A DNA stretch of 64,000 bases from a bacterium (GTDB lineage: Bacteria; Zhuqueibacterota; Zhuqueibacteria; Oceanimicrobiales; Oceanimicrobiaceae): contig JBBIIG010000005.1 in NCBI GenBank assembly GCA_037446635.1, forward strand, positions 64,880 through 128,879, read 5' to 3'. Under the pieces are notes generated by a model. The model was given only the letters and a program-made list of their open reading frames with translations, made no database searches and had not been told where the DNA came from. Of this stretch, positions 49,487 to 51,525 are shown piece after piece (positions within the stretch are counted from its first letter, which is position 1; the number at the start of each line of letters is the position of its first letter). Position numbers and translations under genes: made by a program.

Positions 49487-50563
49487 TTAATTTTTTCGCT
49501 TTATAGAAAGCAGATTGTTATTTTTTAATCTTTTTTCATAGAGCGCGGTTAAGTAATAGAATACGATTAACGCGCCAGTAGAAAGTACCGCTAAATTAAG
49601 TTTCATGAACAAGGAGACGTTGAAATAATTTATGGCGCAGATGAAAACCAGCGTCAAGAACACGATGGTGTTGCGGCGGTGGTGAAAATAGGCTTTCGCT
49701 AAATCGAGCATAGAAAAAGAAAGGCTTTTTTTCCTTTTGATGGGCACCCCGAGGTCGTTGCCGGCGGTCACGATGGCGTTGTAAAATTGCCCAAATTCCG
49801 AGTAGGCGTAGTTCAACAGCCGAAACATGGTGATCAAAAAGAACGAGAGGTTGACCAGCAGCACATATTGACTGAGAGAAAAAATGGTGATTTTGTAAAT
49901 ATAGCCGAGGATATTGGTAATATCCATGATGGTGATGATGAAAAAGCAAACCATAATGGTATTGATGTGTTCGCCCAGCGAGCGGTCGTAGCGATAGAGC
50001 AGGACACCGTAGAGAAAAATGAAAAACAGCGGTAGCAGATTGAAGTACATTTCGTGTTTAAATAACACAGCGTCCTCGATTTCGAGAATATATTGCTTGT
50101 CTAACAGAAAGGGATGATAGTGCCAAAAAAAGATCGGCAGGATGATGGTCAAAGTGATAAGGTAAATCGCCCACGGACTCAGACTATTGAGCATGTATTT
50201 CATGCAGAGGTAAACCACGCAAAGCACTAAAAGAAAGCTCAGGATGATAATGCGATATTCGAAGAGATAGTAGGCTAAGAAATCGCTGCCAAACAAAAAC
50301 TGATCGCCGATGAATATGTTTATAAATGTGAGGCTGTGAAAGACAGAAAAGAGCCCGATGTTAAAAAAGATAAAGCGGTTGTTTTCGTCTTTTTTAAAAA
50401 GAAAAAGGCACTGTAAAAAAAGCAGAAAATAAATAGAGCAATTTATCCAGGAGAGAACCGGGACGGGTTCGTGGGGCAGATTAGAAATAAGAATGAGGAA
50501 TAGAACAAAAAACAACCAGTAGTTGATAATTTTGAAATGAATATGGAGATTTCTGGTAAACAT
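49487..50563 (-). CDS. Polytopic membrane protein (about 10 TM helices), unknown function
   Basis: 358-aa ORF dominated by F/I/L/Y hydrophobic segments with a basic cytoplasmic-looking loop near the C-terminus; ends 23 bp before the regulator start. Confidence 0.8.
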   Translation of the reverse strand: MFTRNLHIHFKIINYWLFFVLFLILISNLPHEPVPVLSWINCSIYFLLFLQCLFLFKKDENNRFIFFNIGLFSVFHSLTFINIFIGDQFLFGSDFLAYYLFEYRIIILSFLLVLCVVYLCMKYMLNSLSPWAIYLITLTIILPIFFWHYHPFLLDKQYILEIEDAVLFKHEMYFNLLPLFFIFLYGVLLYRYDRSLGEHINTIMVCFFIITIMDITNILGYIYKITIFSLSQYVLLVNLSFFLITMFRLLNYAYSEFGQFYNAIVTAGNDLGVPIKRKKSLSFSMLDLAKAYFHHRRNTIVFLTLVFICAINYFNVSLFMKLNLAVLSTGALIVFYYLTALYEKRLKNNNLLSIKRKN

Positions 50564-50621
50564 AGGACCCGAACAGCCAAATTAAAAATTAAGAACTCGA
50601 TGAACGATACAACACATATAG

Positions 50622-50864
50622 TTAATTCACATCCGGCGGAGCTGGTTTTCTCGAGGGCGGCGGCATAGGGTCTCGATAACTTGCAAACGGATTGGTGTCG
50701 GCAGTCAGATTCGTTTCCGGGAATGCTAGAGTTGAGATGTTGGATTCTCCGATATCCGATAGAAGCCCTGTTATTCTACCCTGATTTTCGGCCCCTATTA
50801 GAACGACAACAAAAAGAACATAAATCGCTACAACCGTAGCGGCGGCGAACAGCGTCTTCTTCAT
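50622..50864 (-). CDS. Small exported or membrane-anchored peptide (80 aa) with Pro-rich C-terminus
   Basis: Strong RBS AAGGAGG, MKK plus a hydrophobic helix, C-terminus YRDPMPPPSRKPAPPDVN; promoter directly upstream. Confidence 0.75.
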   Translation of the reverse strand: MKKTLFAAATVVAIYVLFVVVLIGAENQGRITGLLSDIGESNISTLAFPETNLTADTNPFASYRDPMPPPSRKPAPPDVN

Positions 50865-50910
50865 TTGAACCCTCCTTTTGGTTTGAAGAGATGGCTGTTC
50901 GGGTCACCAC

Positions 50911-50939
50911 AATATAACGCGGCATCCCTTAAATGTCAA
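50911..50939 (-). promoter_or_regulatory. Sigma70-type promoter of the peptide operon
   Basis: Minus strand TTGACA-N17-TATATT; predicted transcription start about 50905. Confidence 0.75.
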
Positions 50940-51179
50940 GTCCGACGTATAAAGTTGCGATTTTTTAAGACAATCTTCTTTTTAGCCGCAGAGCCGCCAC
51001 TCGATCTGAATTTTCTTTTTCCTTAAAGAAAAGGGCCGGTTTTTTCTCCCCCATAATCTTTTAAAGGCACCTTGTGGTTTTTCGAGTTGGAATTTTTCGG
51101 ACAACTGCTAAGCAAAATAAAAAACTTTTCGCGATTTGTCAACAACTTTTTCGTTTTTCTGAATCAGCAAATAATTTTA

Positions 51180-51207
51180 TTGACATTCTTGCAAAAAAAT
51201 GTATATT
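51180..51207 (+). promoter_or_regulatory. Putative promoter of tRNA-Phe
   Basis: TTGACA-N16-TATATT with an AT-rich upstream region. Confidence 0.6.
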
Positions 51208-51263
51208 TGCATGTCGATTTTTCTAAAGAAAGGGAGACAGATATACAAGTAATAGTCTGAGCC

Positions 51264-51339
<76 letters not shown>

Positions 51340-51352
51340 CAATGGCGTTATT

Positions 51353-51386
51353 AGAAAGCACCGGATTCGGTGCTTTCTTTATTTTT
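51353..51386 (+). terminator. tRNA terminator
   Basis: AGAAAGCACCG-GATT-CGGTGCTTTCT followed by a T-rich tract. Confidence 0.85.
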
Positions 51387-51525
51387 AGATTCACCCCTCA
51401 CGCAAAATAAGTTTTTCAAAATAAATTAAACCTTTTGCGCATTTGGATTGTCTAATAGATAAGTATTTCCAAGCGTCGCTAACTTTTGAATCCGGCCTTT
51501 CACCGTATCGTAATTGTTTTTGGTA

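Follow-up and report, generated by a model that had tools for sequence, protein, structure and literature searches.

A conserved long-range RNA helix enclosing the peptide gene of a three-gene cassette, predicted to tie the transcript's 5' end to the start region of the next gene

A 64,000-nucleotide (nt) stretch of contig JBBIIG010000005.1 (positions 64,880 to 128,879 of the forward strand; assembly GCA_037446635.1), from a bacterium of the family Oceanimicrobiaceae (Zhuqueibacterota), encodes on its minus strand a cassette of three genes, which specify a small peptide, a membrane protein and a sigma-54-dependent activator (Table 1). This whole stretch is referred to here as the window, and its positions are counted from its first letter. 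The open reading frame (ORF) of the peptide is enclosed by a perfect inverted repeat, the two 14-nt arms of which are 100% complementary and lie 312 nt apart. Comparison of homologous loci confirms, at the level of sequence, that this repeat is a conserved, covarying long-range helix in the sense-strand mRNA of the operon.

The window was searched for repeats and scanned for promoters by consensus match, and distances were read on the minus strand. An earlier note on this DNA had described a perfect 14-base-pair (bp) inverted repeat bracketing the peptide ORF, with one arm at the predicted +1, 6 nt past a -10 box, and the other ending 2 nt ahead of the membrane gene ATG. The repeat search reproduced these coordinates and distances, including the position of the ATG, and the promoter scan placed the 5' arm (arm A) at the sixth nt past the -10 box of the promoter-like site P2, with five bases intervening. 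The transcript start predicted from P2 is at the first base of arm A or at most about 1 nt from it. The 3' arm (arm C) is separated from the end of the peptide ORF by a 42-nt spacer. No other perfect 14-nt inverted repeat in the window has arms that start 50-400 nt from each other; at least one such repeat was present in 5 of 100 block-shuffled windows (mean 0.05), and the repeat in the window alone exceeds chance only marginally. The 11-mer core of the arms occurs four times in the 4.64-Mb genome, two of these occurrences being the arms themselves (the reversed control occurs five times). Being at chance frequency, it is not a dispersed repeat.

Table 1. Features of the cassette locus, with positions in the window
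Feature	Positions	Strand	Basis and remarks
Promoter-like site P2 (TTGACA-17-TATATT)	50911..50939	-	Consensus scan, 11/12 matches
5' arm A, GACCCGAACAGCCA	50892..50905	-	Conserved 11-nt core at 50895-50905; lineage-specific 3-nt extension at 50892-50894
Leader pyrimidine tract, UCUCUUCA	50884..50891	-	Complementary to the peptide start region AUGAAGA
Strong Shine-Dalgarno sequence of the peptide gene, AAGGAGGG	50870..50877	-	GGAGG conserved in the aligned loci
Peptide ORF, 80 amino acids (aa)	50622..50864	-	ORF and homologues; enclosed by the helix
Element B, third (direct) copy of the 3' arm core, CUGUUCG + GCCGCC	50841..50852	-	Alignment and folding; peptide codons 5-8
3' arm C, UGGCUGUUCGGGUC	50566..50579	-	Ends 2 nt (CU) before the membrane gene AUG at 50563-50561
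Membrane protein gene, 358 aa	49487..50563	-	Initiation region covered by the helix
Sigma-54-dependent activator gene, 320 aa	48501..49463	-	Third in the cassette, 23 nt past the membrane gene
Upstream promoter-like site P1 (TTGACA-17-TATTTT)	51114..51142	-	Consensus scan; about 200 nt before arm A

Relatives of the membrane protein were detected in 25 of 41 related genomes and in 18 of the 23 genomes of the order. When metagenome contigs and genome contigs were scanned, 24 and 15 further loci, respectively, were obtained, all 15 genome-contig loci being duplicates of those from the genome search. The records of the relatives are titled as metagenome-assembled genomes of candidate division KSB1, as 'uncultured Calditrichaceae' or as Caldithrix sp. 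The gene order peptide, membrane protein, activator recurs in these loci, as determined by tblastn. Among 48 unique loci (denoted by L and a number below), 42 reach the start region of the membrane gene, and 40 of these 42 carry the 3' arm; the two that lack it are class-level homologues, with about 30% identity, in which tblastn found no peptide gene. A 5' partner able to pair at all 11 core positions is present 313-670 nt upstream in each of the 34 loci whose upstream sequence covers 480 nt or more, and second cassette copies within one genome also bear the arms. A -10-like hexamer (at least 4/6 matches) ends 3-6 nt before the 5' arm in 37 of 38 loci, the exception being L011. The 3' arm ends 0-8 nt ahead of the AUG in nearly all loci, and the stop codon of the peptide ORF lies 25-117 nt ahead of the arm. 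Some peptide ORFs contain extra partners of the 3' arm that match at 11/11 positions (for example, 162-193 nt upstream); these are rich in G·U pairs and were rejected as wobble-only coincidences in conserved GLS codons.

Helix pairs were counted on an alignment of 38 loci and, separately, over 36 unique arm pairs. All 418 cells of the 11 core pairs in the alignment are occupied by standard pairs, only seven of them G·U. Both sides changed at five of the core pairs, in 12 cells (G-C to U-A twice, A-U to G-C three times, C-G to U-A five times, and, at the remaining two pairs, A-U to G-C and G-C to A-U once each), and these compensated pairs occur in several distinct lineages; five of the 11 core pairs are invariant. 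For a 17-pair structure that combines the core with six flank pairs, the covariation score is 0.196, compared to 0.106 in shuffled alignments (0 of 500 reach the observed value), and 10 pairs are changed on both sides, compared to 6.5 in the shuffles (1 of 500). Pairing falls from 83.8% to 24-44% when the 3' partner is shifted by 1-3 columns. The lineage-specific flanks of the core remain complementary although they differ from lineage to lineage, as in CCA/UGG (window), AGAGUU/AACUUU (L002) and UAAUU/AAUUA (L008), and the helix extends into the flanks by 2.4 bp for cognate arms, compared to 0.99 bp for non-cognate ones (0 of 10000 permutations reach this value). In the window's lineage, the helix comprises 11-17 contiguous pairs.

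Two further results bear on the nature of the pairing. First, in a blind test, the 5' arm of the metagenome locus L039 was predicted from its variant 3' arm and then found, with 17 of 17 positions paired; both arms of this locus are altered at three positions, whereas the third copy of the core (element B) is unaltered. Second, the core cells of the 36 unique arm pairs comprise 389 Watson-Crick pairs, seven G·U pairs and no A·C pairs. The presence of G·U in the absence of A·C indicates pairing within the sense-strand RNA, because a DNA repeat, or RNA of the other strand, would show both equally. RNAalifold recovers the long-range helix unaided, and the helix is present in the full-length minimum free energy (MFE) structure of 37 of the 38 loci. 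The earlier note had held that its proposal would fall if the pairing were not conserved or covarying in homologous loci; the alignment yielded both conservation and compensatory changes.

The same architecture is found in more distant relatives. A class-level search with a divergent paralogue as the query gave matches in 46 of 125 genomes, and 29 loci from other families were analyzed. In 12 of these 29 loci, which fall into three families, the architecture is the same and the helix sequences are different. In family v2 (L090 and L094), CCCAGRCAGUUU pairs with AAACUGYCUGGG in a 13-bp helix, and the 5' arm follows a TATATT box. In family v3 (L088, L089, L093, L095, L100 and L101), the helix is 20-26 bp long, with CCUC in the 5' strand and a GAGG in the 3' strand that precedes the AUG by five to six bases; the 5' arm also has, for its 3' half, a local pairing partner, AAUUGACAUG, which overlaps the peptide's own start codon. 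In family v4 (L104, L107, L108 and L109), GGCUCRRGCUGGUCC pairs with GGACCAGCCGAGCY over 14-15 bp, with a -10-like box ahead of the 5' arm. In all 11 class-level loci printed (L101 being the one not printed), the enclosed sequence includes a small ORF whose product is hydrophobic at the N-terminus and rich in proline at the C-terminus. The full-length MFE structure holds the helix in 9 of the 11 class-level loci folded, and in a control with shuffled upstream sequences, the count was 0 of 100 in seven of the 11 loci tested, and 1, 3, 5 and 13 of 100 in the others. What all versions share is the pairing of a leader strand with the bases that adjoin the start of the membrane gene.

Four of the v3 loci (L088, L093, L095 and L100) have an additional feature upstream, a terminator-like hairpin (ACCUGAUA...UAUCAGGU, with a U-rich run behind it) that precedes the 5' arm; farther upstream of this hairpin, the same loci contain a promoter-like site and a GGAGG motif. 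The composition of this region suggests an attenuator-type leader or a separate small RNA.

The core of the 3' arm has a third, direct copy within the peptide gene, which, together with the alternative local hairpin described below, was absent from the earlier note. In this element B, CUGUUCG is repeated at codons 5-7 of the peptide (Leu-Phe-Ala; 50852-50846). CTGTT is invariant in all 38 rows of the alignment and the next base is C in 36 of them, the two U variants still pairing with G. In the adjacent membrane protein ORFs, CTG accounts for only 22% of the Leu codons and TTC for 38% of the Phe codons; given this minority usage, the fixation of these codons in element B indicates that the synonymous sites are held by something besides the protein sequence. 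Arm A (CGAACAG) can pair with element B in 97.4% of the alignment cells, and most of the changes in arm A are A-to-G or C-to-U, which preserve wobble pairing with the fixed element B; the exceptions are the divergent loci L025 and L027.

When the RNA was folded to 12 nt past element B, an A:B hairpin was present in the nascent MFE structure of 37 of the 38 loci. In the predicted structure, A:B forms the lower stem, the leader pyrimidine tract paired with AUGAAGA forms the upper stem, and the Shine-Dalgarno sequence of the peptide gene is in the loop; RNAalifold offers an alternative in which the leader tract pairs with the Shine-Dalgarno sequence. Four of the hairpins were tested, with z-scores of -3.0, -4.7, -4.6 and -2.8, and in each case, none of 200 shuffled sequences was as stable. 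In the full RNA, a forced A:C helix is favored over A:B by 6.1 kcal/mol on average. The folding models thus predict a metastable 5' hairpin that is replaced by a long-distance helix.

The 3' arm of the helix covers an unusual translation start. No Shine-Dalgarno sequence of the GGAG type is found upstream of the membrane gene ATG, and the sole purine triplet in the start region (GGG or GAG) is inside the 3' arm; the statement in the earlier note that no clear Shine-Dalgarno is present there thus holds for the GGAG type but has to be qualified by this weak motif. Shine-Dalgarno-like motifs were detected at 20 of 42 crude gene starts in the window, and both the peptide gene and the activator gene have one. 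The position of arm C follows the start codon rather than the spacer, which fits occlusion of the initiation region, and this, along with the lack of a GGAG-type motif and the location of the purine triplet within the arm, leads us to read the helix as an occluder of membrane gene initiation. Our favored reading, to which we assign a probability of roughly 0.55, is that the helix ties the predicted 5' end of the mRNA to the 11-14 nt adjoining the membrane gene AUG, likely occluding this start, so that the enclosed peptide gene would be translated far more than the membrane gene.

Partition-function calculations gave mean opening energies of 12.4 kcal/mol for the peptide start region and 16.6 kcal/mol for the membrane gene start region. 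With the peptide start held open, the latter value rises to 21.1 kcal/mol; this coupling is positive in 36 of 37 loci, with a mean of +4.4. Sliding windows in three loci limit the coupling to arm A (-6 to -11) and to the peptide start and element B (+6 to +12), with values of about 0 in the rest of the ORF. Thermodynamics thus predicts a coupling that is antagonistic rather than cooperative.

Because arm A can pair with element B or with arm C, never with both, such antagonistic coupling, or a toggle, may follow. During transcription, arm A would pair with element B, and the leader tract with AUGAAGA, to form a local hairpin that buries the peptide start codon. Arm C is made about 330 nt later, at which point the longer A:C helix would win by about 6 kcal/mol, perhaps with the unpaired GACC at the 5' end acting as a toehold. 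Formation of A:C would free element B and shut the start region of the membrane gene. Ribosomes on the peptide start would then occupy element B and leave arm A to arm C, keeping the membrane gene closed; conversely, initiation at the membrane gene would release arm A, and the peptide start would close. A permanently paired 5' end would also shield the mRNA from 5'-end-dependent decay, which 5'-terminal stem-loops are known to resist. In its full form, the proposal is a two-state toggle, in which the 5' end pairs either with the decoy, element B (silencing the peptide and permitting the membrane protein and the activator), or with the membrane gene start (peptide on, membrane protein off), such that each transcript would make a choice of product, and this logic would be kept across one class of KSB1 bacteria although the helix sequence was replaced several times. 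This extension is tentative, and we would sooner bet against it than for it.

Several observations weigh against these interpretations. The helix is present in the fold of the 366-nt minus-strand RNA, which the earlier note had called for, but the overall energy of that fold is ordinary (z -0.20; 42 of 100 shuffled sequences are as stable). Because of the kinship among the loci, about a dozen of which, from metagenomes, cluster tightly together, the shuffle statistics overstate their independence. Among the class-level loci, 16 of 29 have no helix signal and L110 is ambiguous, and the MFE structures of L088 and L093 lack the long-range helix. Element B is invariant, so it offers no compensatory change, and the shuffle control for it is empty (500/500); RNAalifold on 33 of the 38 nascent leaders (five near-duplicates excluded) gave a 6-bp stem only, with no covariation. 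Lacking covariation at element B, the switch rests on synonymous-site conservation and energy models, and nearest-neighbor energies ignore ribosomes, proteins and kinetics. In v3, the local pairing at the peptide start codon is a counterpart of the decoy with another sequence; no clear decoy is seen in v4 and only a weak one in v2, and the toggle is accordingly not universal. Neither is capping of the 5' end a universal role, given that transcripts from P1 would hold arm A internally and that a terminator-like hairpin precedes the arm in v3. The operon transcript, its 5' end and any processing of it are all predictions. Finally, the membrane protein and the activator must be made, yet no opener of the helix was identified here.

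The alternative that survives best is that the helix is mainly a processing or stability element, with RNase III-type cleavage or end protection yielding a peptide-only mRNA, so that a high ratio of peptide to membrane protein would be set by RNA levels and not by initiation; the membrane protein and activator genes would then be left to a second RNA whose leader is very short. Exactly one cistron lies within the helix, which begins at the predicted 5' end, and in the MFE structure of the window, the 14-bp helix runs directly into the stem formed by the leader and the start codon. A near-leaderless product is conceivable for a membrane gene with no canonical Shine-Dalgarno sequence. RNase III usually needs a near-continuous duplex of some two helical turns (about 20 bp or more), a length that is reached in v3, with its 20-26 bp, but not by the 11-17 contiguous pairs in the window's lineage or the 13-15 pairs in v2 and v4. 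The 3' arm, moreover, is constant relative to the AUG and does not occur just anywhere in the 25-117-nt spacer, which is better explained by occlusion. We consider processing unlikely as the main role of the helix.

Still less probable, in our estimate, is that the helix serves as the operator of a trans-acting protein or small RNA (for example, one transcribed from P1) that stabilizes or opens it, in the manner of ribosomal protein L20 and its pseudoknot. The core is conserved far beyond the needs of pairing, with five of its 11 pairs never varying in the 38 loci, but this conservation could also result from the three-way constraint among arm A, element B and arm C, given that B is coding. 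A second promoter-like site, conserved 118-201 nt upstream, and a CCCTCC-like motif complementary to the Shine-Dalgarno sequence of the peptide gene, located between the two promoters in about 20 loci, would suit a small RNA, and the helix must be opened somehow for the membrane protein to be produced; a trans-acting opener or binder is likely to be needed in any model. The use of unrelated helix sequences in the three other families argues against a sequence-specific binder, however, and no candidate factor was identified.

A role at the DNA level, whether as two or three transcription factor sites, as recombination sites of an invertible segment or as the termini of a mobile element, is very improbable. 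The core 11-mer is strongly conserved and present in both orientations, and the operon encodes an activator with a DNA-binding helix-turn-helix (HTH) domain, in line with the alternative raised in the earlier note, a protein-binding site in two orientations. This alternative is disfavored by the seven mismatched cells, which are all G·U on the sense strand (L011 alone has three DNA mismatches in 11), by the covariation of the variable flanks, and by the arms of L039, which changed when copy B did not. The promoter is outside the repeat, the position of the repeat is fixed in all loci and in the paralogues, and the 11-mer is not repeated in the genome beyond chance. An invertible segment or a mobile element was rejected because the arms are not identical as DNA, their position is fixed, and there is no recombinase among the neighboring ORFs scanned, which cover about 4.5 kb on the downstream side of the operon and 7 kb on its upstream side (these encode RpiA, GH39, DUF4340, DUF5683 and an ABC auxiliary protein). 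Chance complementarity without function, for which the 5 of 100 shuffled windows with a comparable repeat and the ordinary fold energy might speak, can practically be dismissed in view of conservation in 34 of 34 informative loci, compensatory changes, a fulfilled blind prediction and analogous helices elsewhere.

The closest known designs are the type I toxin mRNAs of the hok/Sok and Helicobacter pylori aapA/IsoA systems, in which a 5'-3' long-distance interaction is found along with metastable hairpins (PMC6733600). As in those mRNAs, a local hairpin that forms first is predicted to hide the start of an ORF for a small membrane peptide and then to yield to a more stable long-distance helix, and the pairing is supported by compensatory changes (PMC6733600). 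The hok and aapA mRNAs are monocistronic, their distal arm is 3'-terminal and masks the Shine-Dalgarno sequence of the toxin itself, and they are activated by 3' trimming and controlled by an antisense RNA (PMC6733600). Here, the distal arm is internal and covers the start of the next gene, and the long-range state is predicted to free the peptide start rather than to block it. The comparison to hok drawn in the earlier note is apt for the design, that is, the 5' pairing with a metastable hairpin, but does not extend to membership: the peptide Shine-Dalgarno sequence is in a loop, outside the long-range helix, the distal arm is within the operon, and the peptides are 63-186 aa long with conserved proline-rich C-terminal motifs, compared to less than about 60 aa for the small toxic peptides of hok-type systems. 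The consensus scan, the only one made for this purpose, detected no plus-strand promoter-like site within 50566-50905, including the peptide gene. The hok and aapA mRNAs are thus the closest in design, yet the locus does not belong with them.

A second precedent is the Escherichia coli infC-rpmI-rplT operon, where a long-range pseudoknot operator mediates autoregulation by L20 and stabilized pairing is proposed to inhibit translation (PMC1888825). The cassette locus resembles this operator in that a far-upstream mRNA sequence pairs beside the initiation site of a downstream cistron (PMC1888825). The L20 operator helix is part of a pseudoknot bound by a ribosomal protein, neither of which is evident here, with folding tools that do not model pseudoknots, and, unlike in that operator, the upstream strand lies where the 5' terminus is predicted and the loop contains an entire translated cistron (PMC1888825). 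We do not count the locus among the L20-type operators.

Long-range pairing also closes a ribosome-binding site in the Min Jou interaction of phage MS2 and in fold-back inhibition of the IS10 transposase, where translation or transcript context elsewhere decides on opening. In MS2, translation of the upstream gene opens the helix and thereby switches on the downstream gene, which amounts to positive coupling; here, by contrast, neither arm is translated and the predicted coupling is negative. A permissive Rfam scan of 50300-51400 on both strands with 4227 families gave only the neighboring tRNA above the gathering score, the rest being far below. A few word searches of the literature returned nothing on this system and no paper that names both KSB1 and sigma-54, which does not show it to be unpublished. 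To our knowledge, covariation-backed long-range helices in bacterial mRNAs are few, and most of these are in type I toxin mRNAs, phage RNAs and ribosomal-protein operons.

The peptide encoded in the window has an N-terminal hydrophobic segment and a C-terminal proline motif of the DPMPPPxxKP type, and 26 aligned homologues show a mean column identity of 47%. Searches of Pfam, NCBIfam and the ESM Atlas assigned neither this peptide nor the membrane protein to a family (best Atlas score 0.78, below the counting level). Across the peptide family (window 50622-50864; L007, L014, L021-L025, L046, L048 and L089), the C-terminal motif is (I/R)DP(M/T/V/I)PxPxxKP, with 2-8 tandem copies in several paralogues and relatives, such as five LIDPMPRPPK in L021 and five NIPVPPPPYPEP in L089; these tandem proline motifs resemble a multi-core precursor of a processed proline-rich peptide. 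In L039 (871-1068), the peptide ORF contains an in-frame TGA just before the DPMPPP motif, which resumes in frame, and the two RNA arms are preserved with perfect complementarity; the TGA could reflect a pseudogene, an error in sequencing or recoding.

The structural model of the membrane protein has at least seven transmembrane helices followed by C-terminal helices (predicted local distance difference test score, pLDDT, 77.9; predicted template modeling score, pTM, 0.75). A Foldseek comparison of this model with the PDB gave no match at E <= 0.001; the best hits were seven-transmembrane (7-TM) bundles of G-protein-coupled receptors, with E-values of 0.046 or worse and TM-scores of about 0.3-0.4. 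For a predicted model, such weak matches reflect the generic likeness of helical bundles and are not evidence of kinship, and the label 'receptor' for this protein is a guess. The activator consists of an AAA+ domain (from residue 15), a lid and a Fis-type HTH, with no receiver or other N-terminal sensory domain. Activators of the PspF type have the same layout and are controlled in trans by partner proteins. A sigma-54 promoter (-24/-12, with GG and GC elements spaced by 10 nt) on the 3' arm was considered and rejected since the flank of this arm is not conserved: TGG before CUG is present in the window and L028 only, and the flanks in other loci are unrelated. A sigma-54 promoter scan of the window gave 31 matches, compared to 39.9 expected, with no candidate that stood out.

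Upstream of the operon, P1 is conserved 118-201 nt before arm A in most loci. The P1-P2 segment (50940-51107 in the window), with its CCCTCC-like motif in about 20 loci and only a weaker version, CCCUUUUCUUU, in the window, could be a small RNA or a longer leader that contains an anti-Shine-Dalgarno sequence. An inverted repeat of the type TCGCA-N6-TGCGA is located beside the -35 box in most loci (about 50944-50960 on the minus strand of the window); it is perfect in L028 and L029, imperfect in the window, and a candidate operator, possibly for the operon's own HTH-bearing activator. Divergent from the operon is a tRNA-Phe gene (51264-51339, plus strand), with a promoter-like site at 51180-51207 and a terminator-like hairpin at 51353-51378; the related loci printed have a protein-coding gene on this side instead.

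The helix described here spans a whole translated cistron (310-670 nt), and its architecture has outlasted the replacement of its sequence. The new three-gene cassette to which it belongs, from an uncultivated phylum, comprises a proline-rich peptide, a multi-pass membrane protein and a receiver-less sigma-54 activator, and we flag this cassette as a candidate peptide-sensing system. Such a helix would be a compact natural design to set or switch the ratio of two proteins made from one transcript. If the toggle were true, it would represent a post-transcriptional flip-flop within an undescribed peptide-signaling cassette, with each transcript making either a secreted proline-rich peptide or its 7-TM partner along with the activator.

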